DNA of 43,270 nt, from sequence record SRR20825006_314; one strand, 5' to 3'. The notes below the pieces were generated by a model. That model was not told the DNA's origin, did no database searches, and was given only the letters and a program-made list of their open reading frames with translations. Shown piece by piece: positions 17,624 through 40,190 of this stretch. The first letter of the stretch is position 1. Every line of letters starts with the position of its first letter. The position numbers were made by a program, and so were the translations under genes.

Positions 17624-17665
17624 TTTTCAACAATCCATGTGTTGTGAAAATTCAAATTCGCTTTT

Positions 17666-17693
17666 TATTTAGCTTCAACTAACTAAATGTCAA
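17666..17693 (-). promoter_or_regulatory. Putative sigma70 promoter of ectA overlapped by an inverted repeat (candidate EctR operator)
   Basis: Minus-strand TTGACA at 17693-17688. ATTTAG-N10-CTAAAT inverted repeat at 17667-17688 spans the spacer. Confidence 0.45.
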
Positions 17694-17906
17694 CTCTTAA
17701 CGGGTCGAAAAGTTTCGTGGAAAATGCTGAAATCGTGCGTTTTTGGGGATTTATGTCAAAAATATGAGACTGAAACCCTTTGATCGTATTAAAGAAAATA
17801 GAATGTCAACCGACATATAATTTGTTTTTACAAACTTATTTTATGTCTTGGTCGATGGTAAAGATTGGGCTAAACTTTCTCGTCTGAATATGGTGATGAG
17901 GGCGGT

Positions 17907-22052: not shown

Positions 22053-22062
22053 CTAACTTGCC

Positions 22063-24954: not shown

Positions 24955-26044
24955 GAGATGTTTTCAACCTTCTTTCGAGATAGCGCGAATAGGCGCCCAT
25001 AATGTAACTAAAGACGAGATAGACCACGGCCGCGAAGGCATAGCCTTCCAACACGGCGATGCCTTGCCAATTTGGGTCGCGCATGGCACCGCGGATGGTG
25101 TTCAAAAAGTCGAACAGGCCGATGATGGTCACCAAAGTGGTGTCTTGGAAAAAGCCAATGAAAACCATCACGAGTGGGGGGATAACGATCTTCAAGCTTT
25201 GCGGCAGAATGATCAGCCGCATGGATTGCCAGTAGGAAAGGCCAAGCGCTTTGGCTGCTTCATATTGGCCATCGTCGATGGCCTGTAGGCCGCCGCGCAC
25301 CACTTCGGCGATATAGGCTGCTGCAAACATGATCACGGCCACTTGCGCGCGCAACACCTGATTGATGGTCATGCCATCAGGCAGGAATAATGGAAACATC
25401 ACCGAGGCCATGAACAGCAGGCTGATCAGCGGTACGCCGCGGATCAATTCAATATAGGTGATGGAAATGGTGCGAATGGCAGGCAATTTGGAGCGGCGGC
25501 CCAAGGCCAACAACACGCCAAAAGGGAAGCCAGCAGCAATGCCCACGAATGAGAGCATGATGGTGAGCGGCAAGCCACCCCACTTGCTGGTGCTGACAGG
25601 CTCCAAGCCAAATACGCCGCCGCTCATCAGAATAAACATCGCAATCAAAGCGACGATCCAACCGTAAAAGAGTTCCTTTCGCCACATGATGGGCAGCATG
25701 GAAAGGGCCGTCATGCCCAGCATGAGGCCGACTGCAGATGCAGGCCGCCAATGATCTTCAAACGGGAAATAGCCGAACAGGAAGAACCGGATTTTTGTGG
25801 CGACGAACGGCCAGCAAGCGCCATTATTGATGCGGCAATCTTCTGGCGTGCCTGTCCACAGCGCATCAATGAAAGCCCATTTGATGAGCAACCAGCTCAC
25901 CCAAACAAAGGCGATAATGCAAATGCTGGAGACAATGGCGTTAAAAGGCGTGCCGAAATAGTTTTTGCGGATATGGTCCGCAACGCTTGTGGTGTCTTCT
26001 GGTGGGCGGCGCGAAGAAATCAGAACTTTTGCAACATTTGACAT
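24947..26044 (-). CDS. Amino acid ABC transporter permease (AapM/BztC-like)
   Basis: GACW.F, WGGL.LT, ELIRGVPLI and EAA loop AEVVRGGLQAI..GQYEAA. Confidence 0.92.
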   Translation of the reverse strand: MSNVAKVLISSRRPPEDTTSVADHIRKNYFGTPFNAIVSSICIIAFVWVSWLLIKWAFIDALWTGTPEDCRINNGACWPFVATKIRFFLFGYFPFEDHWRPASAVGLMLGMTALSMLPIMWRKELFYGWIVALIAMFILMSGGVFGLEPVSTSKWGGLPLTIMLSFVGIAAGFPFGVLLALGRRSKLPAIRTISITYIELIRGVPLISLLFMASVMFPLFLPDGMTINQVLRAQVAVIMFAAAYIAEVVRGGLQAIDDGQYEAAKALGLSYWQSMRLIILPQSLKIVIPPLVMVFIGFFQDTTLVTIIGLFDFLNTIRGAMRDPNWQGIAVLEGYAFAAVVYLVFSYIMGAYSRYLERRLKTSHD

Positions 26045-26045
26045 C

Positions 26046-27239
26046 TTAGCGTCCTTTCAAGGCCACGCGGCCATTATACCAATTCATCGCCACAGATGTG
26101 AGCAAGCTGAGGCCGAGATAGACCGCCATAAAAATGGCGATGCCTTCGATGGCTTGCCCGGTCTGGTTCATGGTTGTGTTGGACACCATCACCAAGTCTG
26201 GATAGCCGATGGCAATGGCCAGCGTGCTGTTTTTGGTGACATTGAGATAGTTCGATGTCAGCGGCGGAATAATTACGCGTAATGCTTGAGGTAAAATCAC
26301 GGACTTCATTACGCGATTGCCTTTTAGCCCCAGCGACCGTGCCGCCTCCCACTGACCCTTATTGACCGATTGGATGCCGGACCGCACGATTTCGGCAACA
26401 TTGGCGGTTGCCGTCAAGGTCAGGCCGATCAGCAGCGCTGCAAATTCGGCGGTGATCCGACCACCCCCGCTAAAGCGGAAGCGCCCTAATTCGGGGAAGT
26501 TCCAGTTAAATTCTGGCGTGAAGAGAAAATAGGCCAAAGCCAACGGCAGTGCGATGATGGCCAGATGGACTGGCCAAATGCGCACTTTTTCACCGGTTTT
26601 GATGCGTTTTTGAATGGCCCATTTATTGGTGAAATAGGCTGCAACCATTGATGCAATCAAAGTGATCAGCAACATAGTATGGGCAAATGACCATTCCAAA
26701 ACCGGCACATAAAAGCCGCCATTGGAGATGTAAACGCCGGGGGCCAGCTGCAATGCTTCACGCACCGGCGGGAAAATGAACACGATGATTGTGTACCAGA
26801 AGAAGAGGTGCAACAATAACGGGATGTTGCGCATGATCTCGACATAGATCAGCATCAGCTTCGACAAAAGCGGGTTGGGAGATAGGCGCAAAACGCCGAT
26901 AAAGGTGCCCAAAAATGTGCAGAGCACACAGGCCAGCAGCGACACATAGATGGTGTTCAATAGCCCAACCAAAAGGGCGCGCGCATAGCTGTCTGCTGGG
27001 GAAAACTCAATCAGTCGATCACTGATTTCAAAACCTGCTTCTAGCCCAAGATAGTCAAAGCCAGAGGCGATATTTTGTTGCCGCAAGTTTGTGGCGGCGT
27101 TGAACCAGAGGAAATAGGCGACAAGCGCAACGCCTGCAACGGCCAGCACCTGATAGAGGATTGCACGCACACGCTCATCATAAAATAAGCTCGACCAGCT
27201 TGTGGCCTGCGCGGATTTTGTTTGCCGATTTATTGACAT
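26046..27239 (-). CDS. Amino acid ABC transporter permease (AapQ/BztB-like)
   Basis: RALLVGLLNT, RNIPLLL, AEIVRSGI.SV..GQWEAA and NQTGQAIE. GGGAGG RBS before ATG at 27239. Confidence 0.92.
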   Translation of the reverse strand: MSINRQTKSAQATSWSSLFYDERVRAILYQVLAVAGVALVAYFLWFNAATNLRQQNIASGFDYLGLEAGFEISDRLIEFSPADSYARALLVGLLNTIYVSLLACVLCTFLGTFIGVLRLSPNPLLSKLMLIYVEIMRNIPLLLHLFFWYTIIVFIFPPVREALQLAPGVYISNGGFYVPVLEWSFAHTMLLITLIASMVAAYFTNKWAIQKRIKTGEKVRIWPVHLAIIALPLALAYFLFTPEFNWNFPELGRFRFSGGGRITAEFAALLIGLTLTATANVAEIVRSGIQSVNKGQWEAARSLGLKGNRVMKSVILPQALRVIIPPLTSNYLNVTKNSTLAIAIGYPDLVMVSNTTMNQTGQAIEGIAIFMAVYLGLSLLTSVAMNWYNGRVALKGR

Positions 27240-27330
27240 TATTGGCCCTCCCATCCCCAAGGTTCGGGCACCCGCGCCGCAGCGCGAATGCCAAGCTTTT
27301 GATCATGCTCTTATGAAAAGAGCTTCAGGA

Positions 27331-28350
27331 TCAACGGAATGGAGGTGAGTAAAGCAGGCCGCCATCCGTATGTAGTTTGTTTTGAGCACGGCTCAAACCA
27401 AGTGGGGTGTCGGGACCCAGGTGACGATTGAAGATTTCACCATAATTGCCCACGCTTTTGATGATTTGGTAGGCCCAATCATCGTTCAAGCCGAGCTGTT
27501 TGCCCAATTCACCAGTTGTGCCCAAGAAGCGCTGGATTTCTGGGTTTTCGCTGTTGAGCATTTCATCCACATTGGCTTGGGTGATGCCGTTTTCTTCAGC
27601 AAAAATCAGCGCGTAGACAGACCATGTCAAAATGTCGAGCCATTGGTCATCATCGTGGCGTACCACAGGGCCCAATGGTTCTTTTGAAATGGTTTCTGGC
27701 AACACAACATAAGCGCTTGGATCGTTGGCCACAGCTTTTGTTGAAGCAAGGTCTGACCGGTCAGAGGTCAATACATCACAACGGCCAGAGAAGAAGGCAT
27801 TGCGCCATTCATCCGTGTTTTCAAATACGACAGATTCAAAGCTGATATTGTTGGTGCGGAAAAAGTCCGACAGGTTTTGCTGGGTTGTGGTGCCCGGCAA
27901 AATACATACGGCTGCACCATCCAAATCATATGCGCTTTCAACGCCCAGATCTTTTGGCACCATCACGCCTTGGCCATCATAGAAAACGATGGGGCCGAAG
28001 TTGAGGCCTAATGAGTTGTCGCGTGAGAATGTGTGTGTGGTTTGGCGAGACAGAATGTCGATTTCGCCAGATTGCAGCGCTTGAAAGCGAGTGTTTGTGT
28101 TGGTTGGAATAAATTCAACTTTGTCACCGTCAGCAAAAACCGCCGCAGAAACGGCACGGCAGATATCTGCATCCAAGCCTTGAACCTTGCCTTGGTCATC
28201 GGCATAGGCAAAGCCCGCTGATGAAGGTGAAACACCGCACAAAACGTGACCACGCTCTTTCGTGGCGTCCAATGTGCCTGCTGCATGCGCTGCAACACTG
28301 CTCACGCTGAGCATGGCGGCGGCAAGAAGTACGCTCTTTTTAAGTGTCAT
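27331..28350 (-). CDS. Amino acid ABC transporter substrate-binding protein (AapJ/BztA-like)
   Basis: Signal peptide. RF.ALQSGEIDILSR.TT, FYDGQG, ISKEPLGP, VGNYGEIF.R and GLLYSPPFR motifs. Confidence 0.93.
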   Translation of the reverse strand: MTLKKSVLLAAAMLSVSSVAAHAAGTLDATKERGHVLCGVSPSSAGFAYADDQGKVQGLDADICRAVSAAVFADGDKVEFIPTNTNTRFQALQSGEIDILSRQTTHTFSRDNSLGLNFGPIVFYDGQGVMVPKDLGVESAYDLDGAAVCILPGTTTQQNLSDFFRTNNISFESVVFENTDEWRNAFFSGRCDVLTSDRSDLASTKAVANDPSAYVVLPETISKEPLGPVVRHDDDQWLDILTWSVYALIFAEENGITQANVDEMLNSENPEIQRFLGTTGELGKQLGLNDDWAYQIIKSVGNYGEIFNRHLGPDTPLGLSRAQNKLHTDGGLLYSPPFR

Positions 28351-28686
28351 GATTTCCTCCCTATTGCCTCTTGAATTTGGCAATTGGTCTCTATGACAAA
28401 GAGACCATTATCCAGTATGCATACAAGCTGGATGCAATGTAAAAGAAAAAATGATCATTAACTCATTATTAATAATCATCAATCTGTCAGGCTTGTTGTA
28501 AGACTTTGATAATTAAAGAAATATTGTATAAATTTGATTGTGCACAGGCAGCTTATCGCTGTTCGTTGGGGCGATCAAGCGACGTAAATAAGATAAATTT
28601 TAGTCTAATTTTGCCAAAGTATTTGGCGGAATTGTTAGGGCTGTATACAGTCCAAATTAATACCTTTGAAGGTAAGTCTTTGAGGC

Positions 28687-28940: not shown

Positions 28941-29852
28941 CTAGCTGCCCGTTTGCTTGATCAGTGCTGCGCCAGTTGCACCACCAATTGACCCAATGGA
29001 AGAAGCTGCGAAGCGATTGCCTTCTTCCAAGGCTTGCTGGTCGGGTTGACCATTTAGCCATGCCGTCAGAAAACCGGCATTGAAGGCATCGCCGGCCCCT
29101 GTTGGGTCAACAATGGTGCAGGGAAGCGCGGACGCGGATGAATATTGGCCGTTATGAAACAAAGTCGCGCCATCTGCGCCGCGCTTCACGATAATTTTGG
29201 TGGTCCAATCGCTTAGCTCTGATGCAAAAAATTCAATCTCACCGGTCACGTCAAACACCCGTTTGAACTCTGACAGATTAGGCAAAAACAGATCGACTTG
29301 CTGGATCAGGTCGCGCACTTCTCCGGCATCCATTGCGGCTTCGTCCCAGGCGCAATCCAGCGAAATACTTAGCCCTGCTGCCTTTGCCTTGTCCAGAATA
29401 AAGGGCGCCTCGAGCAGCGTTGCCAATTCAGCGATATGCAAATGTTTGATGCTTGGGTCCGCAATGGCTTGATCGAAATTATTGGGGATCGGTTCTCCGC
29501 CACGGCGTGTCAGGAACGCCCGGTCATCATTTAATGCCATAGCCACAGTGAGCTGTGTGCCCCACTTTTCATCCGCGGTTACGGCATAGCGGTCACCAAT
29601 GCCAGATTGGGCAAGATCGTTTTGCACAAAGCTACCGATTGGTCCGTGGGGCAGATAGGCACAAATCTCAGTTGGTTGTCCCGCTGCGGCCAAATAAGCG
29701 GCAGTTATATAGGCGCCGCCGCCAGCATGGGCGCTAAAGCTATCAGCGTAAACTTCTTCGCCCAGCCTTGGCATGTGCGGCAGGCCAGCGAACACGAGGT
29801 CGCAATAGATGCGACCTACGCATAAAACGCCTTTTCGGTTTCCGTCTGTCAC
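28941..29852 (-). CDS. PfkB/ribokinase family carbohydrate kinase
   Basis: AGGGA.ITA, VK.GADGA and VDPTGAGDAFNAG. GTGA overlap with the ATPase gene. Confidence 0.92.
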   Translation of the reverse strand: MTDGNRKGVLCVGRIYCDLVFAGLPHMPRLGEEVYADSFSAHAGGGAYITAAYLAAAGQPTEICAYLPHGPIGSFVQNDLAQSGIGDRYAVTADEKWGTQLTVAMALNDDRAFLTRRGGEPIPNNFDQAIADPSIKHLHIAELATLLEAPFILDKAKAAGLSISLDCAWDEAAMDAGEVRDLIQQVDLFLPNLSEFKRVFDVTGEIEFFASELSDWTTKIIVKRGADGATLFHNGQYSSASALPCTIVDPTGAGDAFNAGFLTAWLNGQPDQQALEEGNRFAASSIGSIGGATGAALIKQTGS

Positions 29853-30913
29853 GCAAGGGCCTCTTGCGTGTTGGTGTCGAACATGTGGATTTCTTCTGCG
29901 TCAGCATAGAGGGCGATCTTTTCGCCTGGCTGCGGATGCACACGGCCCGGTGCCGACGCGATGACCTCATGGCCGCCCACATCAAGATAGAGCAGGGTTT
30001 CGGTGCCCAATGGCTCCACAAGTGAAACGGTGCCTTCCATCAATGGCGTTTGGCCTTCCTTCGCAGTGGTCAGGGCACTTGGGCGGATGCCAATTGTGAT
30101 GTCTTTCACATCTGCTTTATGTGGCATTTTGATCGTTGGTCCGGCTTCTAGCTTCACGCTTTCGCCTTCAGCTGTGCCTTTGAGCATATTCATGGAAGGG
30201 GCGCCAATAAATTGGGCCACAAACATGTTTTTGGGCTTCAGGAACACTTCTGACGGTGTGCCCACTTGCTGGATGTATCCGTCTTTCATGATCACAATGC
30301 GGTCGGCCAATGTCATGGCTTCCACTTGGTCGTGGGTCACGAAAATGATGGTGGTGCCTACCCGCTGGTGAAGCTTCTTGATTTCAAGGCGCATTTGCGT
30401 GCGCAACTGCGCATCCAGGTTTGAGAGCGGTTCATCGAAAAGGAAAACCGATGGGTCACGCACCATCGCGCGGCCAATGGCCACCCGTTGGCGTTGCCCA
30501 CCGGAAAGTTGCGAGGGTTTGCGCTCAAGTAGTTCAGTCATGCCCAGAATTGCGGCGACTTCGTCGATCCGCTTTTCTTTTTCGGGCTTGCTCATTTTAG
30601 AGGTGTGCAGGCCAAAACCGATATTTTTGCGCACGCTCATATGGGGATAGATGGCATAATTTTGGAACACCATGGCGATGTTGCGTTCTTTGGGTTCCAA
30701 ATTGTTCACCACGCGGTCGCCGATGGAGATTTCACCAGAGGTGATTTCTTCCAGCCCAGCCAGCATGCGCAACGTGGTGGATTTGCCGCAACCGGAAGGG
30801 CCAACCAACACGACAAATTCGCCGTCTTTCACATCCAAATTGATGCCGTGTAGCACTTCGGCTTTGCCATAGGCTTTGGTCAAGTCTGATAAAGTTACGG
30901 TTGCCACAATCAT
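29849..30913 (-). CDS. Sugar ABC transporter ATP-binding protein (MalK/UgpC type)
   Basis: GPSGCGKS, VFQNYAIYPH, LSGGQRQRVAIGR and FDEPLSNLDA motifs. Confidence 0.95.
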   Translation of the reverse strand: MIVATVTLSDLTKAYGKAEVLHGINLDVKDGEFVVLVGPSGCGKSTTLRMLAGLEEITSGEISIGDRVVNNLEPKERNIAMVFQNYAIYPHMSVRKNIGFGLHTSKMSKPEKEKRIDEVAAILGMTELLERKPSQLSGGQRQRVAIGRAMVRDPSVFLFDEPLSNLDAQLRTQMRLEIKKLHQRVGTTIIFVTHDQVEAMTLADRIVIMKDGYIQQVGTPSEVFLKPKNMFVAQFIGAPSMNMLKGTAEGESVKLEAGPTIKMPHKADVKDITIGIRPSALTTAKEGQTPLMEGTVSLVEPLGTETLLYLDVGGHEVIASAPGRVHPQPGEKIALYADAEEIHMFDTNTQEALA

Positions 30914-32406
30914 TCCCCCCGATTGTTGAGTAGGGCGTCAAATGCTTTTTCGCGCATTTGGTTCGCGTTGTTTTTTCTTGTTTGGATGTGCTCAAATTCT
31001 GTTTTGAGCTGATCGAAATGAGCGATTTGTCGCTCTAATGAGGCATCAATAGCCACAGGTGCCGGGCCGCCAAACCGCTTGCGCACATTTACGAAATGTC
31101 GGGCTGAAACCGCTTTGCGATAGGCCGCTTCGTTCAGATGCGTATCGCGCTCTGTCATTTTTTCAAATGCAGCGTGGAAATCCTCATAGGCCTCGGCCAA
31201 GGATTTGCCATCGGCGATCACCTTTTTGGCGGTCGCTGCTGCAATTTCATGTGCTTGACGGAAAGAGATGCTTTCCTCGCGCACCAATGTGTCCGCCAGC
31301 TCGGTAATGGTGATGCAGGCTGCATCGCTGGTTTTGGCCACGTGTTCTTCGTTGATGGAGAGGGCGGGGATAAACGCCGCCAACAGATCGATAGCGCGGC
31401 CGCCGCTTTCAAATGTTGCATAGCCCGCCTGTTGCACTTCGCCTTCGCTGTCATTCATGTCGGTGAAAGGCGTGTTGTGCATGGTGTTGACCATCATGTC
31501 GCAACGCCCTGCGGTGACAGAGCAGAGATGGCGCATATGCTCGATGGGTACAGGATTGCGCTTTTGCGGCATGATCGAGCTGATCTGCACCAGAGCGTTC
31601 GGCACATAGAGCTGACCCACTTCAAAGGCGCTCCAAAACTGGAAGTCTTGGATCACGCGGCCCAGATGCACAAAGATCAGTTTGATCGCGCTATAAAGGC
31701 CAGTGATGTAGTCCACGCTGGCAATGCATCCATATGCATTTTCCAACGGCGCTTCAAAGCCCAGCAATTCAGCAATATAGGTGCGGCTTATTGGAAAGCC
31801 AGACGTGGTGATGGCGGCTGCGCCCATGGGGCATTTTTCAATTTGATGCCGTGCCAACATTAGTCGATCAAGGTCGCGCAGCAGCACTTCAGATGCGGCC
31901 AATAGATAATGGCCGAATGTGCTTGGTTGCGCTGGTTGGCCATGGGTATAGGCAACAATCAGTGTTTCTTTTTCTCTCGCCGCTGTCTCGTGCATGGCCT
32001 GCACAAGGCTATAGAGCGAGCGGATCAATTCATCGGCGCGCTTTTGCAGGCCAAGCTTGAACACGGTATGGTCCATATCATTGCGGCTGCGTGCCGTGTG
32101 CAGTGCACCAGCCAAATCTGGGCCAAGCCGCTTCTTCAGCTCGGCTTCAACCAGGAAGAAATAGTCTTCCACTTCACCGGTATAGGTGAGGGATTGCACG
32201 TCCACTTCTTCATCGATGGCGCGCAAAGCAGTAGCCAGTTTGTGGCCCGTGCTTTGAGGCAAAATGCCTTCTTCCACCAGCATCACCAAATGGGCTTGGT
32301 TGATGCGACGGAACGCGTCCACATGGTGGGCCTTGGCGCCTTCAAAAAGAGGTGCCAACACCGCATCTTTGTAGACTGGATGTGGGAAAACGGAGTTATC
32401 ACTCAT
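30910..32406 (-). CDS. Argininosuccinate-lyase-like enzyme (fumarase/aspartase superfamily), divergent ArgH paralog
   Basis: C1 LHTARSRND, C2 AYTHGQPAQP, C3 ISSIMPQKRNP, and FRQAH. True start ATG 32406 (ATGA overlap with the permease). Confidence 0.88.
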   Translation of the reverse strand: MSDNSVFPHPVYKDAVLAPLFEGAKAHHVDAFRRINQAHLVMLVEEGILPQSTGHKLATALRAIDEEVDVQSLTYTGEVEDYFFLVEAELKKRLGPDLAGALHTARSRNDMDHTVFKLGLQKRADELIRSLYSLVQAMHETAAREKETLIVAYTHGQPAQPSTFGHYLLAASEVLLRDLDRLMLARHQIEKCPMGAAAITTSGFPISRTYIAELLGFEAPLENAYGCIASVDYITGLYSAIKLIFVHLGRVIQDFQFWSAFEVGQLYVPNALVQISSIMPQKRNPVPIEHMRHLCSVTAGRCDMMVNTMHNTPFTDMNDSEGEVQQAGYATFESGGRAIDLLAAFIPALSINEEHVAKTSDAACITITELADTLVREESISFRQAHEIAAATAKKVIADGKSLAEAYEDFHAAFEKMTERDTHLNEAAYRKAVSARHFVNVRKRFGGPAPVAIDASLERQIAHFDQLKTEFEHIQTRKNNANQMREKAFDALLNNRGE

Positions 32407-33287
32407 CCTTTTAGCCCCGCCATAACCACGCCGCGAATAATAAAGCGCTGGAAGATCAGGAACACGATCAGTGTTGGAATGGTCGCCAAAGCAGCCCCCG
32501 TCATGATCAGCTCCCACTGCACCGATTGCTCAACACTAAAGGTGGTGAGGCCAACGGGCAGGGTGTAAAGTTCTGGCGAGTTGGTCACGATTAGCGGCCA
32601 GATAAAGGCTGTCCAGTTGCCCAAGAAGATGAAAATGGCAAGCGCAGCAAGCGCAGGTTTCACCATTGGCATTGCCACGCGCCACCAGATTTGGAATTCG
32701 TTCAACCCGTCGATCCGCGCGGCTTCCAAAAAGTCGTCTGGCACTGATTCAAAGAATTGCTTCATCAAAAATGTGCCGAAGGCAGTCATGATTCCGGGGA
32801 ACATGATGCCCCAGTAGGTGTCGAGCCAGCCGAAGTTTTTCGCCATCAAATACCATGGGATCACCAGCATTTCGGTTGGGATCATCAAGGTAGAGAGAAT
32901 GGCAACAAAGACAATCATGCGGCCACGGAACTGGAATTTACACAAGGTATATCCCACCAAGGCATCGAACAGCACGGCCGACACTGTGGTGACTGTGGCG
33001 ATGATCAGTGAGTTGAGGAACCACATATAGAAGCGGCCATCCTCAAGCACATAGGCGTAATTGTCGAGAGTGGGTTCTTCAGGGATGATCGACAGATTAT
33101 AGATTTCATGTGGCCATTTCAACGACGTGGAAATCATATAAACAATCGGCATCACCATCAAAATGCCGCCGGCCATAAGCAATATCCAACGCAAAATCGC
33201 GATGGGGTCTTGTTTGCGGGCATGGCGTTTTGGAGTGGCTTTGTCCAACGCGTCAGCGGTGACTTTAATATCTGCAGTGTTGGCCAT
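32403..33287 (-). CDS. Carbohydrate ABC transporter permease (MalG type)
   Basis: FLEAARIDG EAA loop and WTAFIWPL motif. Confidence 0.93.
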   Translation of the reverse strand: MANTADIKVTADALDKATPKRHARKQDPIAILRWILLMAGGILMVMPIVYMISTSLKWPHEIYNLSIIPEEPTLDNYAYVLEDGRFYMWFLNSLIIATVTTVSAVLFDALVGYTLCKFQFRGRMIVFVAILSTLMIPTEMLVIPWYLMAKNFGWLDTYWGIMFPGIMTAFGTFLMKQFFESVPDDFLEAARIDGLNEFQIWWRVAMPMVKPALAALAIFIFLGNWTAFIWPLIVTNSPELYTLPVGLTTFSVEQSVQWELIMTGAALATIPTLIVFLIFQRFIIRGVVMAGLKG

Positions 33288-33288
33288 T

Positions 33289-34182
33289 TTATTTGTCCCT
33301 CATGATATAAAGTTGCGCCAAGCTGACGGCCAAGAGAATGATAAAGAGCACCACAGTTTGCGCAGCGGCATAGCCCATATCGAACGAGTCAAAAGCGGTT
33401 TCGTAAATCATCAAAACGAGCGGTTTGGTTGAGTTAAGCGGCCCGCCCGGATTGTTTGAGGTCATGTTGAAGACCTGGTCGAAAATCCTCAAAAAGCCGA
33501 TTGAAGACAGCACCACGAGGAAAACTATAGTGGGCTTCAAGAGTGGCAGGGTGATGCGCCACAGAATGGTCCATGGTCCTACACCGTCGATGCGCGCGGC
33601 TTCATAATAGGTTTGCGGAATGGCGCGGAGGCCCGCCATAAAGATGATGATTTGAAAGCCCAATCCTGCCCACACCGCTGGCGCCAAAATGGATGGCAAT
33701 GCCCATGTGGTGGAGGAAAGGAAGGGAAATTGTGGAATGCCCACACTGGCCAGCGCGTTGTTGAACAAGCCAATGGGTACGGGTTGATAGAACCAGCGCC
33801 ATAGCCAGGCCATCGCGACAGTAGATGTCATAAAGGGTAGGAAATAGAGCGCGCGGATTGTGCCGTGCATAAAGCGCACTTTGTCTAAGTGGTAGGCCAC
33901 GATAAACGAGAACACCAAACTTACTGGTGTGCCCAGCAGCAAATAGACAAAGGTGTTTTTGAACACTTTCCAGAAAACGGGATCAGCAAATAGTTTGCCG
34001 TAATTGTCCAGCCCATTCCAAGTGCGATCGCCCAATAGGTTCCAATCTTGAAAAGAAAGGGTGATGGCGTTCAGCGTTGGGTAGAAGCGGATGACGCAAT
34101 AAAACAGGATTGGCAGTGACAAGAAGGTCCATGCCCACACTACCTGTTTTTGCTTAATGGTCAGATTGGCATACCAGCCCAT
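33289..34182 (-). CDS. Carbohydrate ABC transporter permease (MalF type)
   Basis: GLDNY, YYEAARIDG, GGP.NST and MGYAAA motifs. Confidence 0.93.
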   Translation of the reverse strand: MGWYANLTIKQKQVVWAWTFLSLPILFYCVIRFYPTLNAITLSFQDWNLLGDRTWNGLDNYGKLFADPVFWKVFKNTFVYLLLGTPVSLVFSFIVAYHLDKVRFMHGTIRALYFLPFMTSTVAMAWLWRWFYQPVPIGLFNNALASVGIPQFPFLSSTTWALPSILAPAVWAGLGFQIIIFMAGLRAIPQTYYEAARIDGVGPWTILWRITLPLLKPTIVFLVVLSSIGFLRIFDQVFNMTSNNPGGPLNSTKPLVLMIYETAFDSFDMGYAAAQTVVLFIILLAVSLAQLYIMRDK

Positions 34183-34202
34183 AATATTCCCCCCAGGAAA
34201 GT

Positions 34203-34227
34203 GAAGGGGCAGCGTGGCCGCCCCTTC
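34203..34227 (-). other. Intergenic stem-loop after the sugar SBP gene (mRNA stabiliser or partial terminator)
   Basis: GAAGGGGC-agcgtggcc-GCCCCTTC. Confidence 0.55.
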
Positions 34228-34233
34228 AAGATC

Positions 34234-35493
34234 TTATTCTTCGTAATATTCGTCGAGGATTTTTTGTTCTTCTTCTGCTGCAATGGCGATGGCCTGTTCA
34301 GCAGTTTGTCCCTCAAGGAAGATGCGTTGGGTGGCATCCATCAATACTTGGCGTTGGCCAGATTCTTCCGCAAAGATTGTGGTTTTGGCATAGCCCAAAC
34401 CTTCAATGAACGGACCGAACACTGGATCTGCCTTGTTGGCATCAGTCAATGCAGCTGATGGTTTGGCTGGCAATTCGCCAACTGTGTCCAACCAGATTTG
34501 CATCGCTTCGTCAGAGGTGATGAAGGCCAAGAATTTCTTCGCAGCTTCTTCTTTTTCACCGTCTGCTTTAGACGTTACGGCATTTACCCAATAGCTTGAG
34601 TAGTTGGATTTTGTGCCGTCAGGGCCAGCAGGCAATTCGGCAACGCCCCATTTCAAACCGCGTGTGCTTTCAAGGGCACCAATACGGAATGACCCATCAA
34701 TATGCATGCCCGCGCGACCAGCTTTAAAGGCAGCTTGTGGCTCATCCATAAAGCCTGCTTGGGTTACGCCGTGCACATTTTGCAAATCAGTGTACCATTT
34801 CAATGCTGCAGCGCCGCTGCCATCATCGTCATAATTCACGTTGCGATAATTGTCAGTGTAAGGTTCGCCGCCAAACTGGCGGGTTAGCACTTCGCGCCAC
34901 CAATGGTGATCCTGCGCGTTCATGCCGGTGGTGATGCCCACTTGGGTAATGTTGCCTGAACCATCTTTTTTGGTCAGTTTTTTCGCCACTTCAACCAACT
35001 CGTCCAATGTGGCCGGTGGGTTTTCAATGCCTGCTTCTTCAAACAAACGTTCATTGTAGAACAGAGCCAATGAGCGCACAGCGGTTGGCAATGCCATATA
35101 TTGGCCATCGCGTTTCATGGCGCTAACCATTGGGAAAAATTCAGCCTCGATTTGCTCCGGTGGGAACATATCTGTTGGCAATGGCGTGATCAGCTCAGCT
35201 TCCACATAATCATTCAACCAACCATAGAACAATTGAACCACATCTGGACCTTCGCCAGCAGGAATCGCTGCGGCAACCTTTGTGCGGTAGTCCGCATAAG
35301 GGAAGGTTGTGTGCTTCACTGTGATGTCTGGATTTTCGGCTTCAAACTTTTCGATCAGCGTATCAATTGCCTTTACGCGTGCTTCGAAAAAATATTGCCA
35401 ATATTCGATTTCCACAGCCCAAGATGAACCTGCGCTGAGGGCAAAAATAGCACCTGATGCGAAACCAAGTAGCTTGTTCTTCCAAGATTTCAT
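34234..35493 (-). CDS. Carbohydrate ABC transporter substrate-binding protein
   Basis: Signal peptide ending SSWA. FEAENPDI.V, GPDV, LFYN..LFEEAG and AFKAGRAGM motifs. Confidence 0.92.
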   Translation of the reverse strand: MKSWKNKLLGFASGAIFALSAGSSWAVEIEYWQYFFEARVKAIDTLIEKFEAENPDITVKHTTFPYADYRTKVAAAIPAGEGPDVVQLFYGWLNDYVEAELITPLPTDMFPPEQIEAEFFPMVSAMKRDGQYMALPTAVRSLALFYNERLFEEAGIENPPATLDELVEVAKKLTKKDGSGNITQVGITTGMNAQDHHWWREVLTRQFGGEPYTDNYRNVNYDDDGSGAAALKWYTDLQNVHGVTQAGFMDEPQAAFKAGRAGMHIDGSFRIGALESTRGLKWGVAELPAGPDGTKSNYSSYWVNAVTSKADGEKEEAAKKFLAFITSDEAMQIWLDTVGELPAKPSAALTDANKADPVFGPFIEGLGYAKTTIFAEESGQRQVLMDATQRIFLEGQTAEQAIAIAAEEEQKILDEYYEE

Positions 35494-35613
35494 TTTCGGA
35501 TCCCTCCACTATAAGTTGTGCCCGAATTTTAGAATTCTTATTGTTTTTCAATGGCTTGAAACTCTAAATTTCGGCCATTTTTGCTTTTTTCTTCACCGGG
35601 TCGGCCTTTAGTG

Positions 35614-35661
35614 TTGACCATTTGCGAAAACAAATCAATACTTAACTCAAGTTAATTGAGT
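35614..35661 (+). promoter_or_regulatory. Putative promoter of the ROK gene plus inverted-repeat operator
   Basis: TTGACC-N17-AATACT at 35614-35642. ACTCAA-N5-TTGAGT at 35645-35661. Confidence 0.5.
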
Positions 35662-35677
35662 AAATAAATTTCGATAG

Positions 35678-36877
35678 ATGGCGACTAAAGGCACAACAGG
35701 CATTATTGGCGGCAACGCGCTGCGCAATCGCGACCACAATCAAAAAGTGGTGCTCGACTATGTGCGGGCAAATGAACCTGCGGGGCGGGCAGAGATTGCG
35801 CGTAGCTGTGGGCTCAGCATTCAAGCTGTGTCCAATATTACGGCTGATCTTGAGCAGCAAAAATTGCTGATGCCGGATGGTCATCGGACGGAAGGGAAGC
35901 GCGGCAAGCCCGCGCTGCAATATCGGTTTAATCCGGAAGGGGCGTTTGCCATCGGCGTTGAATTGCGGCCCGATGCCGTGGTGACGACCGCGCTCAACTT
36001 GTCAGGCAAAAAAATCTACAATGCGCGGGTGCCTTTGGAGGATGCGCGGCCTAAGCCAGCCATTAAAGCGGTGGGCGATGAGGTGCGCAAAGCCATCGAG
36101 GCGAGCGGCTTTGATCCGAAAAGTTTGCTTGGTGTGGGCGTTGTGATGCCAGGTCCGTTTGGCGATACAGCCATTTCGCGGGCAGGGGATGCGGTTTTGC
36201 CGGATTGGGAAGAGGTTGAGCCGCAATCTGCATTTGAGCAGGAAATTGGCTATCCGGTATTGATTGAAAATGACGCCACGGCCGCTGCCGTTTCTGAGCG
36301 GGTGGCAGGAGTAGCGTCTGATTTGGATGATTTTTGCTTCGTCTATTTCGGTTCAGGTATCGGCCTAGGTGTCGTGACCAAAGGGCATGTGCTGCGCGGC
36401 GCATTTGGCAATGCGGGTGAGATCGGGCACATCATGACCCAGATTGATGGGCATCAATGCCCCTGCGGCAATCGCGGTTGTCTTGAGACCTATGCTAGCC
36501 GGATTGCGGCACGTAATTATTTGCAACCTTTCGGCATTGATCCGCAAAGCGGCGCCGATTTTGCCGACCTGGTTGATCAGCGAAACCCGCATTTTCTGGC
36601 GTGGATTGATCAGGCAGCAAAGCATTTGTCGCCGGTTATTGGTACTTTGGAAAATCTGTTTGATCCCCAAAGCATCATTTTGGGCGGTGCCATGCCTGAC
36701 GCGGTGATTGATGCGTTGATTGCCCGGCTCGACCTGCCCAAAGGCTCCGTCGCTAACCGAGATGAGCGGGCCTGTCCTCGCGTTATGCGCGGCTTTTCGG
36801 GTCGGCTAACCGCGGCGCTTGGCGCTGGAGCTATGGTGATTCACCAAACCATCACCCCCAATAAACATTCTTACTGA
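35678..36877 (+). CDS. ROK family transcriptional regulator (NagC/XylR type)
   Basis: N-terminal HTH RAEIARSCGLS..AVS, RGKP linker, ENDA, G.AGEIGH and Zn motif CPCGNRGCLE. Confidence 0.93.
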   Translation: MATKGTTGIIGGNALRNRDHNQKVVLDYVRANEPAGRAEIARSCGLSIQAVSNITADLEQQKLLMPDGHRTEGKRGKPALQYRFNPEGAFAIGVELRPDAVVTTALNLSGKKIYNARVPLEDARPKPAIKAVGDEVRKAIEASGFDPKSLLGVGVVMPGPFGDTAISRAGDAVLPDWEEVEPQSAFEQEIGYPVLIENDATAAAVSERVAGVASDLDDFCFVYFGSGIGLGVVTKGHVLRGAFGNAGEIGHIMTQIDGHQCPCGNRGCLETYASRIAARNYLQPFGIDPQSGADFADLVDQRNPHFLAWIDQAAKHLSPVIGTLENLFDPQSIILGGAMPDAVIDALIARLDLPKGSVANRDERACPRVMRGFSGRLTAALGAGAMVIHQTITPNKHSY

Positions 36878-36891
36878 ACGCGAGGAAAACT

Positions 36892-39270
36892 ATGTCTAAG
36901 CCAGAAGCTGATCGATTGATAAATGCGTTTGCGCAACCGCGTTCCGTGCAATTGTGGCGGGCATTGCTTCCGCTTAAATCCTGTACAAGTTTTATGAACA
37001 CTGGCGCGCATCCGGATGATGAAATTTCTACCATGTTGGCGGCCTTGATTTATCGCGATGGCATCAATTTATCTCATGCTTGTTCTACCCGCGGAGAAGG
37101 TGGCCAAAATGCTATTGGCACTGAAACAGGTGTGGATCTTGGTGTGGTGCGGACCCGAGAAATGGAGCGGGCCGCTGAGATTTTAGACATGACGCAATAT
37201 TGGCTTTGCCAATATCCGGGTGATCCGCTGGCCGATTTCGGCTTTTCCAAAACCGGGGAAGAAACACTTGGTTATTGGGGTGAAGAGCGCACCTTGGAGC
37301 GCTTTGTGTGGATTTTGCGCACAGAACGTCCCGATATGATTTGCACCACATTCTTGGATGTGCCGGGGCAGCATGGGCACCACCGCGCGATGACACAAAG
37401 CGCGTTTAAAGCTGTGAAGCTAGCCGCTGATCCGAACGCGTTTCCTGAACAGAATTTGCCAGTGTGGCAGGTGAAAAAGCTTTATTTGCCTGCTTGGTCT
37501 GGCGCTGGCGATGCTTATGATGATGATTTGCCACCGCCGCCCACAAGCGTTGTGACGGACGGCACGGGCCAAGATCCCATCATTGGCATGGATTATGCGC
37601 AGTTGGGTCAGGTTTCGCGGGCCTATCACCAAACACAAGGCATGGGGACTTGGGTATCGCCGGGTGTTGAAAAGAAATGGCCACTTCATTTGGCGTGGAC
37701 GGCAAATGGTGAACCGCATGATGAGCAATCGATTTTTGATGGCTTACCACAAACGCTGGATGATTTGGCTGATTATGCGCAAGCGCCAGCAATAGGGTCA
37801 TCGCTTTACATTGCGCAACATGCCATTGAGCAGGCGATAGAGGCGTGGCCGAAAACGGAGCAAATGGTTACTTCCTTGCTGGCCGCATTGGAAGCCGTGA
37901 GAGAAGCGCGGGCAAACTGTCCGGATGCCGCGAAAGCGGAAGTTGTGCATCGGCTTGATGCGAAGGAGCTGCAATTGCAGCGTGCGCTTTATCTGGCAAG
38001 CCCAATTCGTGCTTCTCTAAAGCCGCAACAGATTTATGCGCGTCCGGGCGAGGTGGTGAAGTTTGACCTTGAGCTCGATAGTCCTTTGGCTGTTGGGGCT
38101 TCAATTGCCGCGCCGGATGGCTGGCTTGTTGAAGAGACTGACGCTAAACATTTTCAGGTGCAGGTGCCTTCAGATGCTGAGCCAAGTGACCCTTTGCCAG
38201 ATATTTGGTCACCCGTTCAAGGCAATGAAAGTGTGCATTTGCGCCTTGTTTGGGCGTTGCACGGGGTCAATGTTGAAGTATCACTCGACCCGATTGAACG
38301 ATTGAACATTTTGCCTGCCAATGAAGTTGGCTTGGAGCCACGAGCACTGCTGTTCAATAAGCAGAATATAGCGACCAAAATTGTAGAGCGCATAGGTTCC
38401 CGCCAATTCGATATTTCGATTGCTAAGGCCGGAGATTTTGACATTATTTCAAATGAGGCTGATCTCACAGTGACTGCGCATAGCGATGTTGCCGAAGGGC
38501 TATATGATTTGCCCGTGCAGCAAAATGGTGCGGCCGCGCAGTTTGTCCGACGGATGCATTATCCGCATACGGGGCCGTTGGTTCGTGCTGAGGATGCGGC
38601 GTTGTCCGTCAGGGTTTTGGATGCAAAATTGCCCACGGGGCGCATCGGCTATGTGGCTGGTGGTAGTGATCGGGTGGATTATTGGCTTACCCAGTTTGGC
38701 TTGGACGTCACTGCAATTGATGATGACGCGTTGGCGGCGGGGCGGCTTGATCAATTTGACAGCATTATTGTCGGCGTGTTCGCATTTCGCACGCGGCCTG
38801 CATTGCTGGACAATGTTTCGGCGTTGCATGCTTGGGTGCGCAATGGCGGTAATCTGGTTACGCTTTATCATCGTCCATGGGACAATTGGGATAAGGACAC
38901 TGTGCCACTCGCACCCATTGAGATTGGCAAACCATCTTTGCGCTGGCGGGTAACTGACCAAAATGCAGAAGTGCGCTATTTGCAGCCAGATCATTTGTTG
39001 TTTGCGGGACCAAACAAAATCGGTGATCAGGATTGGGCCGATTGGCATAAAGAACGCGGGCTTTATTTCGCTTCCAGCTGGGACAGCGCATATACCCCGC
39101 TTTTATCCATGAATGATGCAGGTGAGAAGCCGCTTGAGGGCAGCTTGCTTGTGGGTGAATTTGGCAAGGGGCGGCATATTCACACCAGCCTTATCCTGCA
39201 TCACCAGCTTGATAAGTTGGTGCCGGGTGCCTACCGCTTGATGGCAAATATGCTGGATTGGACGGCCTAG
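36892..39270 (+). CDS. Multidomain PIG-L/LmbE family de-N-acylase
   Basis: GAHPDDE, TRGEGGQN..G.E, R..E...AA, DFGFSK and HGHH motifs, with a long C-terminal extension. Confidence 0.88.
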   Translation: MSKPEADRLINAFAQPRSVQLWRALLPLKSCTSFMNTGAHPDDEISTMLAALIYRDGINLSHACSTRGEGGQNAIGTETGVDLGVVRTREMERAAEILDMTQYWLCQYPGDPLADFGFSKTGEETLGYWGEERTLERFVWILRTERPDMICTTFLDVPGQHGHHRAMTQSAFKAVKLAADPNAFPEQNLPVWQVKKLYLPAWSGAGDAYDDDLPPPPTSVVTDGTGQDPIIGMDYAQLGQVSRAYHQTQGMGTWVSPGVEKKWPLHLAWTANGEPHDEQSIFDGLPQTLDDLADYAQAPAIGSSLYIAQHAIEQAIEAWPKTEQMVTSLLAALEAVREARANCPDAAKAEVVHRLDAKELQLQRALYLASPIRASLKPQQIYARPGEVVKFDLELDSPLAVGASIAAPDGWLVEETDAKHFQVQVPSDAEPSDPLPDIWSPVQGNESVHLRLVWALHGVNVEVSLDPIERLNILPANEVGLEPRALLFNKQNIATKIVERIGSRQFDISIAKAGDFDIISNEADLTVTAHSDVAEGLYDLPVQQNGAAAQFVRRMHYPHTGPLVRAEDAALSVRVLDAKLPTGRIGYVAGGSDRVDYWLTQFGLDVTAIDDDALAAGRLDQFDSIIVGVFAFRTRPALLDNVSALHAWVRNGGNLVTLYHRPWDNWDKDTVPLAPIEIGKPSLRWRVTDQNAEVRYLQPDHLLFAGPNKIGDQDWADWHKERGLYFASSWDSAYTPLLSMNDAGEKPLEGSLLVGEFGKGRHIHTSLILHHQLDKLVPGAYRLMANMLDWTA

Positions 39271-40190
39271 CCAAACAGTCCGCCTGGTTCTTGTGCCACG
39301 GGAGCCAACACGCTGAGTGCTTTGGGGTGAATTTTCACCTCAAAGCGATTTTGCCCCGTGACCAACTCTCCATCAATCGTAACATCTGGCTTTTTCTTGC
39401 TGTGTTCGAATGACAGCACAGCGGATTTGGCGCCGCGCTCTATCAGGTCGGGGTTGGTATCCCAGGTGCCAAGCAACAAGTCAGATGCTAATTTTAGATT
39501 AGCCTGGGTGGGCAGAGGTCGTGCCGAATAGATGCCGAGCTCACCTTGCTGCGGAAAGTCTGCATAAGGCATATGTCCACGGCCATATTTATTGTTGGCA
39601 ATCGCAATAAGGCTCAAATTTTCTTGGTGATTTTCGCCATCTAGCTCAAGGTCGATCATATAGCGTGGTGGGCGGCTAAATGTGCTGAGCGCAGCTCTGA
39701 TCCCGCCAAAAATCTTTTGAAACCGCGACTGGTGTTGCTGCTGATCGCGCAGCTTCACAATCTTGGGGTGCATGCCCACGGAGATTTGGTGCAAAAACAG
39801 GTGATCGTTGGCTGTGGCAATATCTACGCGCTCCGGCTTTGCCTCTACCAAGGCATCAATCGCATCGTCAAGATTGAGCGGAATGCCCAAAGATCGTGCA
39901 AACAGATTCATCGTGCCCGCAGGGATTACGCCAAGTGTCTTTCCATGCTGCCAGCAATGTTGAGCGGCAGCGGAAATTGTTCCATCGCCACCGCCGGCCA
40001 ACACCGCTTCGCATTCCGCATCATTTGTGAGCTGATCCAGCGTTTCAATCAGTTCTGGGCCGCTGATGATTTGGATATTTATGGTGTGCCCCGCCGCTTC
40101 GAAACGCTGGCGAATTTGCGTGGCGAATTGCTCCACATCCATTGTGCGTAGCGTACCACCATCCTTATTCAACACTGTGCAGATATGCAT
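39267..40190 (-). CDS. Diacylglycerol/lipid kinase family protein (YegS/DagK-like)
   Basis: AGGGDGTI, IPAGTMNLFARSLGIP and IDGE motifs. Confidence 0.92.
   Translation of the reverse strand: MHICTVLNKDGGTLRTMDVEQFATQIRQRFEAAGHTINIQIISGPELIETLDQLTNDAECEAVLAGGGDGTISAAAQHCWQHGKTLGVIPAGTMNLFARSLGIPLNLDDAIDALVEAKPERVDIATANDHLFLHQISVGMHPKIVKLRDQQQHQSRFQKIFGGIRAALSTFSRPPRYMIDLELDGENHQENLSLIAIANNKYGRGHMPYADFPQQGELGIYSARPLPTQANLKLASDLLLGTWDTNPDLIERGAKSAVLSFEHSKKKPDVTIDGELVTGQNRFEVKIHPKALSVLAPVAQEPGGLFG

Follow-up and report, generated by a model that had tools for sequence, protein, structure and literature searches.

An ArgH-like lyase within a conserved sugar-uptake and PIG-L deacylase cassette: a candidate catabolic system for a glucosamine conjugate

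We analyzed a 43,270-nucleotide stretch of DNA from sequence record SRR20825006_314 (hereafter the window, at its full length) and focused on a putative catabolic cassette at positions 28941–39270, in which a gene for a lyase related to argininosuccinate lyase (ArgH) lies within an operon for an ATP-binding cassette (ABC) sugar importer. The original prediction, made from the sequence alone, had read on the minus strand the order substrate-binding protein (SBP), permease, permease, lyase, ATPase and PfkB-family kinase, divergent from genes for a ROK regulator and a PIG-L de-N-acylase; open reading frames (ORFs) and family assignments agreed with this order, and all of the families named were recovered with Pfam and NCBIfam. 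In protein sequence, the locus was 99% identical to that of Maritalea mobilis CGMCC 1.7002 (L008), while the comparison genome used here (G001) shared 96% DNA identity with it over the whole 10.3-kb locus.

The first gene of the operon encodes a CUT1-type periplasmic SBP of 419 aa (34234..35493, minus strand; PF13416, PF01547), the N-terminus of which, MKSWKNKLLGFASGAIFALSAGSSWA, reads as a signal peptide, and whose closest solved relatives, all distant at 82–88 bits, are the alpha-glucoside binders GacH (3jzj), Atu4361 (4qrz) and Lmo0181 (5f7v). It is followed on the same strand by permease 1, which is UgpA/MalF-like (297 aa, 33289..34182; PF00528; top NCBIfam match UgpA at 103 bits, under cut-off), and permease 2, which is UgpE/MalG-like (294 aa, 32403..33287; PF00528; top NCBIfam match UgpE at 136 bits, under cut-off). 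The ATPase (354 aa, 29849..30913, minus strand) is of the UgpC/MalK type with a TOBE domain, matching NF008653 (UgpC) at 497.9 bits against a cut-off of 432, together with PF00005 and TOBE_2. The importer thus has the family-1 SBP, the MalF/MalG-type permease pair and the MalK/UgpC-type ATPase with TOBE domain that define a CUT1 system. The last gene encodes a PfkB-family sugar kinase of 303 aa (28941..29852, minus strand; PF00294, 111.8 bits), for which no NCBIfam equivalog cut-off was reached; its top matches were IolC (77 bits), ribokinase (73 bits) and FrlD (54 bits), and its closest match by sequence in the PDB, where it has distant relatives only, was the 2-keto-3-deoxygluconate (KDG) kinase 1v19, at 63 bits.

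Between the permeases and the ATPase lies the gene for the ArgH-like lyase, a 498-aa class I lyase of the aspartase/fumarase superfamily (30910..32406, minus strand; PF00206, PF14698). Its longest ORF begins at a GTG at 32517; because the lengths of the homologues (493–499 aa) and the overlap with the permease stop both point to the ATG at 32406, we placed the start there. The genes are tightly packed, with the 4-nt overlaps described earlier present at each of the positions given for them: ATGA at 32403–32406 and at 30910–30913, and GTGA at 29849–29852, where the GTG start of the kinase overlaps the stop of the ATPase. The lyase is therefore wedged into a transporter operon, as had been noted, and no arg genes were seen near it across the 43-kb window, in which the only amino-acid kinase (12875–14311) is part of an ectoine cluster.

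Upstream of the SBP gene, a divergent intergenic control region (35494..35677) contains an imperfect palindrome, TTAACTCAA-N5-TTGAGTAAA, at 35642–35664, which is a candidate ROK operator. A promoter-like match was found at 35614–35642 on the plus strand, in a region whose counts of promoter and terminator matches were no higher than those in shuffled sequences. The plus-strand genes beyond it encode a ROK-family regulator of 399 aa (35678..36877; PF00480, 152.6 bits), with an N-terminal winged helix-turn-helix and a ROK sugar-sensing domain, a weak MarR_2 match at residues 22–64, and scores of 107 bits for NagC and 106 bits for Mlc, both under cut-off; and a 792-aa cytoplasmic PIG-L fusion protein (36892..39270; PF02585, 60.9 bits against a cut-off of 28.2). 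The N-terminus of the latter is hydrophilic and carries no signal peptide. Since the SBP does have one, import would come before the enzymatic steps.

We assessed whether the lyase is an ArgH by several comparisons. It has the hallmarks of the class I lyase superfamily: PF00206 matched at 138 bits, and the segments HTARSRND, YTHGQPAQP and SSIMPQKRNP align with the ArgH motifs. Its closest solved relatives were Thermus thermophilus ArgH (192 bits) and the ethylenediamine-N,N'-disuccinic acid (EDDS) lyase entries 6G3D/6RX8 (158–162 bits). Against the curated ArgH model TIGR00838, the lyase scored 297.2 bits, marginally over the cut-off of 279.5, and against NF005218 it scored 325 bits, where the cut-off is 883. 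All public names that we saw for its homologues were "argininosuccinate lyase", and these names, together with the TIGR00838 score, are what speaks for a plain second argininosuccinate lyase isozyme placed by chance in a sugar operon. Yet, as had been anticipated, a canonical argH co-exists with the paralogue in the near-identical genome G001: it lies on another contig (C3:104294-105652) and scores 624 bits against TIGR00838, compared with 300 bits for the paralogue. In a FastTree phylogeny of 107 lyases, comprising every fifth locus of the close-relative set described below (set 1) with a lyase ORF of at least 480 aa and all other loci with an ORF of at least 400 aa, the 7 canonical rows were separated from the 100 rows of a clade of paralogues of about 500 aa with an SH-like support of 100. 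We did not rely on the inner topology, because FastTree readily joins long branches and the rows L095 and L166 are long. The lyase is thus a non-ArgH paralogue.

The same separation was apparent in an evenly drawn sample of 401 alphaproteobacterial genomes, in which matches to the lyase exceeded 500 bits in 11; the next match scored 326 bits and the one after it 243, while canonical ArgH proteins lay at 185–212 bits. Genome G241, one of the 401, gave only a match at the canonical level. One family member, G244:C60:1174-2655 (644 bits, 61% identity), has an in-frame TAG within the match and could be a pseudogene or reflect a sequencing error.

To compare residues, we aligned 6 canonical ArgH proteins with 49 PIG-L-linked lyases from Proteobacteria, Firmicutes and Acidobacteria. 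Invariant in both groups were S107-R-N-D110, T154-H155 and S276-S277-I-M-P-Q-K282-R-N284-P, and the lyase retains the motif set SRND, THxQxAQP and SSIMPQKRNP. As judged from these catalytic and fumarate-binding motifs, the fumarate-forming machinery that the original prediction had ascribed to the lyase is intact. At 19 further positions, a residue invariant in ArgH has been swapped for another that is kept in at least 90% of the PIG-L-linked lyases, 16 of the 19 being invariant there. These include H→F83, H→Y167, AG→T200-T201, T→Q274 and D→V286, as well as L→H290, K→H310, Y→D316, Q→E321 and K→Q325. Our placing of swapped positions in the leaving-group pocket draws in part on what we take to be the corresponding residues of delta-crystallin, Y323/Q328/K331. 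The pocket residues of EDDS lyase are likewise absent, its Asp290 aligning with V286 and its Tyr320 with M317, which adjoins D316; PMC6973171 describes Asp290 and Tyr320 as lining the amine pocket of that enzyme and Ser280 as its catalytic base. Since the fumarate-forming blocks are kept and pocket residues are swapped, fumarate is still expected as a product, but the leaving group should be another one, shared across phyla. With Asp, Glu and His gained and two Lys lost, the enzyme might accommodate a ligand rich in hydroxyl and amine groups. With a canonical argH present, a separate clade, 19 ArgH-invariant positions swapped (pocket positions among them), a linkage to transporter and PIG-L genes that is strict across phyla, and no arg genes nearby, we regard a second argininosuccinate lyase as highly improbable.

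We then examined whether the gene neighborhood is conserved. Set 1 was obtained by a pattern scan with one genome per species and consists of the best 80 of 111 relatives, with lyases 62–99% identical. The hosts were Hyphomicrobiales (Maritalea, Pseudovibrio, Nitratireductor, Ahrensia, Hoeflea), Rhodobacterales (Ruegeria, Pseudorhodobacter, Tropicimonas and others) and Stappiaceae, and also the gammaproteobacterium Granulosicoccus and a single-cell assembly labelled SUP05. Among loci whose flanks were long enough to assess, the PIG-L fusion was present in 68/68, the SBP in 72/72, permease 1 in 74/74, permease 2 in 78/78 and the ATPase in 76/76, while the ROK regulator was present in 70/71 (absent in L038). 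The PfkB kinase was found in 61/69 loci, at 39–99% identity, and was absent in L011, L047, L052, L057, L062, L064, L079 and L080. Only one further neighbor recurred, an EamA/DMT transporter whose gene immediately follows that for the PIG-L fusion (29/68 loci); no other enzyme was conserved beside the cassette in the set-1 loci. This arrangement is far beyond chance. The association of the lyase with sugar ABC, ROK and PIG-L genes that had been predicted therefore held in a near-strict form, and it ties the lyase functionally to these genes. None of the refuting outcomes named beforehand was borne out: the lyase does not cluster with canonical ArgH, it is not the sole copy in G001, and its neighborhood is conserved.

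In the window itself, a gene for a DAGK/MamU-like lipid kinase (39267–40190) is convergent with the PIG-L gene, with a 4-nt overlap, and beyond it are an autoinducer-binding regulator of the LuxR type, for which no luxI was seen in the window, and a dCache/HAMP chemoreceptor truncated at the edge of the window. Because the DAGK/MamU-like and LuxR genes are conserved only within Maritalea, we left them out of the system.

The PIG-L fusion was modelled with AlphaFold from 38 homologues (predicted local distance difference test 89.7, predicted template modelling score 0.88). The model comprises an alpha/beta LmbE/PIG-L zinc deacylase domain of the CE14 type (residues ~1–285), a three-helix bundle (~289–369), two beta-sandwiches (~373–576) and a C-terminal alpha/beta domain (~585–792). 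Residues H40-P41-D42-D43 and H161/H164 were invariant in the 38 homologues and make up the HxDD...H zinc/base motif, with a spacing that falls within the range of 97–148 stated in PMC4101496. A Foldseek search with the model ranked MshB (1q7t) first (E=1.8e-7), followed by the diacetylchitobiose deacetylases 8bgn/4xm0, LnmX, TT1542, BC1534 and BshB (6ull), so that the modelled N-terminal domain shows an LmbE-type fold; a further match, STM3548 (2gk3), probably belongs to the C-terminal domain. By sequence profile, the best PDB match of the fusion was diacetylchitobiose deacetylase (Dac). Pfam gave no match at E<=10 for residues 201–792. Homologues from Paenibacillus and Acidobacteria show NPCBM_assoc, and a protein atlas returned only unnamed or LmbE-like clusters from Bacteroidota/Acidobacteriota, with NPCBM_assoc in 13–41% of their members, which serves as a lead only. 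Against family models, the PIG-L domain scored 37 bits for Mca (cut-off 277), 24 for MshB and 21 for TIGR04000 BshB2 (cut-off 195). It thus falls outside the BshB family, which does not exclude the same kind of substrate. According to the review PMC4101496, the characterised LmbE members all hydrolyse an N-acetyl-glucosamine core, or N-acyl-glucosamine in the case of Mca/Bca; among them, BshB deacetylates the N-acetylglucosamine (GlcNAc) conjugate GlcNAc-Mal, and Bca cleaves N-acyl-GlcN-Mal, the corresponding conjugate of an N-acylated glucosamine (GlcN).

More distant loci revealed which parts of the cassette stay and which change. We compared loci with lyases 51–57% identical to that of the window (L088–L094), one at 37% (L095), and 80 loci from a profile scan (L108–L187). 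In L095, a family-5 SBP (top NCBIfam match GsiB at 181 bits, under cut-off), the lyase and DppBCDF are on one strand, and a LacI regulator, in place of ROK, and an 806-aa PIG-L fusion are divergent from them. L088 and L089 have the lyase divergent from the PIG-L fusion, a family-5 SBP and a Dpp-type permease, while L093 carries a ROK sugar kinase in place of PfkB. In L091, a NagB-II-type SIS protein is divergent from the SBP, NagA (300 bits, over cut-off) is close by on the opposite strand, and a GFO/MocA oxidoreductase follows the ATPase. Loci of Paenibacillus and Neobacillus combine a ROK regulator, a PhnS-like SBP, an ATPase, a fused permease, the lyase, a BadF-type kinase, whose only NCBIfam match is NagK at 73–103 bits, far under the cut-off of 370, and an 869-aa PIG-L fusion with NPCBM_assoc. 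The fusion gene is just upstream of the lyase in Paenibacillus; in Neobacillus L162, it is only a tblastn match at the edge of the locus, on the opposite strand and ~6.6 kb from the lyase. The Paenibacillus tyrfis operon also encodes a small PIG-L protein with BshB2 as its top match (123 bits, under cut-off). In two of these loci, a creatininase-family amidohydrolase gene is just upstream of the lyase (L146:8127-8981 and L162:8226-8957), where it separates the lyase from the PIG-L fusion in P. tyrfis L146 and from the fused permease in Neobacillus niacini L162.

Acidobacteria and Woeseiaceae (L134, L138) have a TonB-type outer-membrane protein, an SSF or APC permease and a PIG-L fusion of ~880 aa abutting the lyase, one acidobacterial APC permease showing weak FrlA similarity (90 bits). 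Lysinibacillus and Solibacillus have no PIG-L fusion; their loci consist of EamA, a PhnS-like ABC system (Lysinibacillus only), the lyase and a BadF kinase. Bosea, which likewise shows no such fusion within 9 kb, has ROK and a CUT1 cassette that includes the lyase and PfkB and is followed by an SIS protein and RidA. In Chloroflexi L187, Pseudothermotoga L166 and Paenibacillus sp. L132, an Amidohydro_2 protein (PF04909) is encoded beside the lyase and a CUT1 SBP and may be a non-homologous replacement of the deacylase. The lyases of the Bacillus cereus group (PRK06705 type, 33–38% identity; L169:5154-11380, L141) sit in an unrelated context, in the order SSF symporter, inosine-uridine nucleoside hydrolase, beta-lactamase-like protein, lyase and GNAT; speculatively, their substrate might be a different succino compound, perhaps a succino-nucleoside.

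A match to the PIG-L fusion was found in 31/80 profile-scan loci, two of the 31 being re-fetched set-1 contigs. When the presence of PIG-L was mapped as a label on the tree, 16 changes were needed, compared with a mean of 35.6 for shuffled labels, and 0/500 shuffles were as low; this demonstrates clustering rather than independent events, because kin share labels. What stays constant is the lyase and an uptake system, usually joined by the PIG-L fusion. Three non-homologous families of sugar kinase (PfkB, ROK and BadF-type) occupy the kinase slot, and the further enzymes, where present, are those of GlcNAc/GlcN catabolism. The presence of NagB-II, NagA, ROK kinase or BadF-type GlcNAc-kinase-like genes in variant loci supports the earlier suggestion that the imported sugar is an amino sugar, insofar as gene families can indicate it.

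These companions also bear on what is joined to that sugar. The original prediction had favored a sugar-aspartate conjugate, that is, an Amadori product such as fructose-aspartate or an opine-like compound, which PfkB would phosphorylate first and from which the lyase would then free fumarate by C–N cleavage, replacing an FrlB/FraB deglycase. The lyase does belong to the C–N-cleaving ArgH/EDDS-lyase branch, and the acidobacterial APC permease is weakly FrlA-like. PfkB matches FrlD, but its 53.9 bits are far under the cut-off of 247; the Bosea and L091 variants have SIS proteins, which is the fold of FrlB/FraB, but that of L091 scores 311 bits for NagB-II (cut-off 430) against 26 bits for FrlB and has NagA adjoining it. 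Such a substrate would also leave the PIG-L protein without a role; this protein is present in all 68 assessable loci, and its known relatives require a sugar with a 2-acylamido group. That the kinase acts on the intact conjugate is likewise difficult to reconcile with its being the least conserved member, missing in 8/69 loci and replaced elsewhere by ROK and BadF types. We therefore did not retain fructose-aspartate as the substrate, nor phosphorylation before cleavage, and consider an Amadori or opine-like conjugate quite unlikely.

The same features of the kinase weigh on another possibility, namely that a phosphorylated sugar acid is the substrate and the lyase eliminates phosphate, or some other leaving group, from it in an XcbC-like manner, with PfkB making this sugar acid phosphate as a KDG-kinase-like enzyme. 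The closest solved relative of PfkB is indeed KDG kinase, its top NCBIfam matches are the IolC and KDG kinase families, and the lyase matches the XcbC model NF052535 at 204 bits. This score is nevertheless below the ArgH-type scores and far under the XcbC cut-off of 575, the kinase is dispensable (8/69 loci are without it) and interchangeable with ROK and BadF kinases of hexose/hexosamine type, and the companions are NagB-II, NagA and SIS proteins, not Eda-type aldolases. An elimination of this kind seems very unlikely to us.

It is also conceivable that the N-acyl side chain, and not the sugar, carries the succino group, in which case the PIG-L protein would act as an amidase to free an N- or S-succinated amino acid, for example from a succinated thiol conjugate, and the lyase would de-succinate it in the way of S-(2-succino)cysteine lyase. 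Mca and Bca are described as amidases splitting acyl-GlcN conjugates in PMC4101496, and PMC9706529 reports a class I lyase cleaving N-acetyl-S-(2-succino)cysteine. GNAT acetyltransferases adjoin the lyase in the Solibacillus and B. cereus-group loci, and EamA-type transporters recur. Against this, the lyase is kept with a sugar kinase and an SIS deaminase in loci that have no PIG-L fusion (Bosea, Lysinibacillus), which links it to the sugar branch, and no conserved thiol- or cysteine-handling enzyme is found in the cassette. We accordingly judge a succinated side chain to be unlikely.

All four of these alternatives explain fewer of the conserved features than a glucosamine conjugate does. We therefore propose, with a probability of roughly 0.6, that the cassette, under the control of ROK, serves the catabolism of a small glucosamine conjugate bearing a succinate unit that can yield fumarate. 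The CUT1 ABC importer would take up an N-acyl-glucosamine, in the simplest case N-acetyl, joined via O or N to C2 of a succinate unit, which would be a malyl- or aspartyl-type group. The cytoplasmic PIG-L/LmbE fusion would strip the N-acyl group, and the lyase, using the serine-loop chemistry of the aspartase/fumarase superfamily, would abstract the C3 proton of the succinyl unit and expel the sugar, giving fumarate and glucosamine. PfkB would then phosphorylate the released sugar to GlcN-6-P, which NagB, encoded elsewhere in the genome, would turn into fructose-6-P. Such a pathway can be completed in G001, which has both nagB (315 bits) and nagA (310 bits) elsewhere. That the kinase would act after cleavage is suggested by its absence in 8/69 loci and its interchangeability with ROK and BadF kinases of monosaccharide type. 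Of the original interpretation, a non-ArgH fumarate lyase serving an imported amino-sugar conjugate has thus held up, while the specific substrate and the order of steps have not.

Several observations weigh against this proposal. Its chemistry is derived from protein families and gene neighbors. Because the lyase passes the curated ArgH model (297 vs 279.5 bits), it may have residual ArgH activity, and the characterised members of the ArgH branch cleave C–N bonds; we know of no precedent there for a C–O malyl-glycoside lyase. The solved relatives closest to the SBP bind neutral alpha-glucosides, not acids, and the kinship of PfkB to KDG kinase fits a sugar-acid product equally well. As for the deacylase, its likeness to Mca/MshB/BshB2 in sequence is weak, chitobiose deacetylases are among its top folds, and nothing ties it specifically to malate conjugates. 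Moreover, 41/107 tree rows have no PIG-L fusion within 9 kb, including Bosea, with its otherwise full cassette, the Lysinibacillus type and many Acidobacteria. Finally, the transporters are varied (CUT1, Dpp, PhnS-like, SSF and APC), and therefore more than one related substrate is likely.

Within the proposed class of glucosamine conjugates, the lyase and the deacylase would jointly need a 2-acylamido sugar and a 2-substituted succinate, which, among known natural compounds, leaves only GlcNAc-malate, GlcN-malate and bacillithiol (Cys-GlcN-malate); GlcNAc-malate or bacillithiol is our most specific candidate for the substrate. The N-linked N-(1,2-dicarboxyethyl)-glucosamine would be just as good a fit for the lyase, but offers no obvious role for a deacylase. 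Other compounds were considered and set aside: GlcNAc-asparagine, which is an amide without the succinate-type carboxylate for lyase chemistry and for which no glycosylasparaginase is present; N-acetylmuramic acid, whose lactyl ether has a single carboxylate; and succinyl esters and succinamopine-type opines, which contain no amino sugar.

A further possibility, which we hold only tentatively, is that the cassette scavenges bacillithiol, N-methyl-bacillithiol or their core GlcN(Ac)-alpha-1-O-L-malate, shed by Bacteroidota, Firmicutes and Acidobacteria and eaten by non-producers. In that case, the PIG-L fusion would be a BshB/Bca-like deacylase, the lyase would be the first glycosyl-malate C–O lyase, and EamA would dispose of the cysteine-type moiety. 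The EamA family includes the Escherichia coli cysteine/O-acetylserine exporter, which would fit such disposal. Pointers in this direction are the recurrence of EamA (29/68 loci, and also the Solibacillus and Lysinibacillus operons) and the BshB2-like PIG-L protein of P. tyrfis, and the family-5 and PhnS-like SBPs and APC permeases of the variant loci are consistent with a small zwitterion. In G001, no BshC was found and BshA remained under cut-off, so that a bacillithiol-type compound would come from outside. In terms of supply, PMC6282198 reports that marine Polaribacter holds ~1150 pmol N-methyl-bacillithiol per mg dry weight and that bshA-C genes occur in Bacteroidetes, Acidobacteria and Firmicutes.

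The rest of the window contains other gene groups. At 12875–18404, a minus-strand ectoine/hydroxyectoine cluster comprises genes for GNAT (17090–17623), a class-III aminotransferase (15764–17056), a small ORF (15362–15760), a PhyH-type dioxygenase (14388–15449) and the amino-acid kinase mentioned above (12875–14311), with a MarR regulator (17907–18404) divergent from them; going by family names and general knowledge, we take this cluster to be ectABCD-ask. A second uptake/catabolic block (18614–28383) encodes an amino-acid-type SBP (27331–28383), two HEQRo-type permeases that are unusually long, at 404 and 365 aa (24947–27260), and three consecutive amidohydrolases (20430–24954), opposite a GntR/FCD regulator and a class-V aminotransferase (18614–20433); outside L008, this block is not conserved beside the lyase cassette. 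Signaling genes of the general-stress type occupy 2434–7063, with a PhyR-like anti-anti-sigma response regulator (5711–7063) and HWE histidine kinases at 2434–4029, with a CHASE domain, and at 4452–5441, and a Dps/ferritin-like gene is found at 7543–8055.

In the literature, a full-text search that left most subscription journals uncovered returned no paper on the SBP/permease/lyase/ATPase/PfkB/ROK/PIG-L gene combination and none on bacillithiol catabolism or uptake; with the same coverage and limited to 2019 onward, it returned none on a GlcN-malate lyase. Known kinds of enzyme are thus assembled here into an undescribed and widespread pathway. Since every public name that we saw for the family is "argininosuccinate lyase", metabolic reconstructions count it as a second ArgH, which is almost certainly something else. 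The occurrence of the lyase/deacylase pair with amino-sugar genes in Proteobacteria, Firmicutes and Acidobacteria, and of a Chloroflexi/Thermotogae version in which another amidohydrolase replaces PIG-L, implies a widespread nutrient without a described catabolic route in the searched literature. The conserved retooling of the ArgH leaving-group pocket also bears on C–N/C–O lyase biocatalysis, as in the case of EDDS lyase. Should the substrate prove to be derived from bacillithiol, this would be the first catabolic route for that compound and a cross-feeding link from Bacteroidota and Firmicutes to Alphaproteobacteria, through which a major bacterial thiol would be recycled as a source of carbon, nitrogen and sulfur in sea and soil.

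Compared with known systems, the lyase shares with ArgH/delta-crystallin (EC 4.3.2.1; T. thermophilus 2E9F, E. coli 1TJ7) the fold, the length class and three conserved regions including the SS loop, but it is only ~33% identical, has ~35 extra residues and sits in a transporter operon in place of an arg context. EDDS lyase of Chelativorans sp. BNC1 (PDB 6G3D-6G3I, 6RX8) is, like the lyase, an ArgH-like protein of ~500 aa. It is a catabolic C–N lyase releasing fumarate from an N-substituted aspartate, and it demonstrates that the ArgH branch can take leaving groups other than arginine; its substrate, however, contains no sugar, and EDDS lyase has no known link to PIG-L, ROK or kinase genes. 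In the S-(2-succino)cysteine lyase pathway, as described in PMC9706529, a class I lyase encoded in an operon for uptake and (de)acetylation likewise takes fumarate off a succinated metabolite. Unlike the cassette, this pathway is not known to have a sugar regulator, kinase or PIG-L protein. Its transporter is reportedly of an amino-acid type, accompanied by a GNAT and an M20 deacetylase.

On the sugar side, Frl/Fra Amadori catabolism (FrlD/FraD kinase with FrlB/FraB deglycase) resembles the cassette in having a PfkB kinase encoded within an operon, there for the uptake of a conjugate of sugar and amino acid. The window, however, encodes no SIS deglycase and its kinase falls short of the FrlD model (53.9 vs 247 bits), while Frl/Fra systems are not known to have a PIG-L protein, so that the cassette lies outside this group. 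The N-terminal domain of the PIG-L fusion shares the HxDD+H zinc motif and the fold with BshB/Bca of bacillithiol and MshB/Mca of mycothiol metabolism, the substrates of which are GlcNAc-X or acyl-GlcN-X; GlcNAc-malate, the substrate of BshB, carries the kind of succinate-derived group that a fumarate lyase needs. Those enzymes are single-domain proteins of 220–300 aa with biosynthetic or detoxifying roles, whereas the PIG-L fusion has 792 aa and several domains. The archaeal chitin pathway follows the same logic as the one proposed here, in that a GlcNAc glycoside is first deacetylated by a PIG-L enzyme and GlcN is then freed, phosphorylated and deaminated; the enzymes involved are diacetylchitobiose deacetylase (Dac), followed by a GlcN kinase and an SIS GlcN-6-P deaminase. 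To remove the aglycone, the archaeal pathway uses a glycosidase, whereas the cassette has no conserved glycosidase and, in that place, a lyase of the fumarate type.

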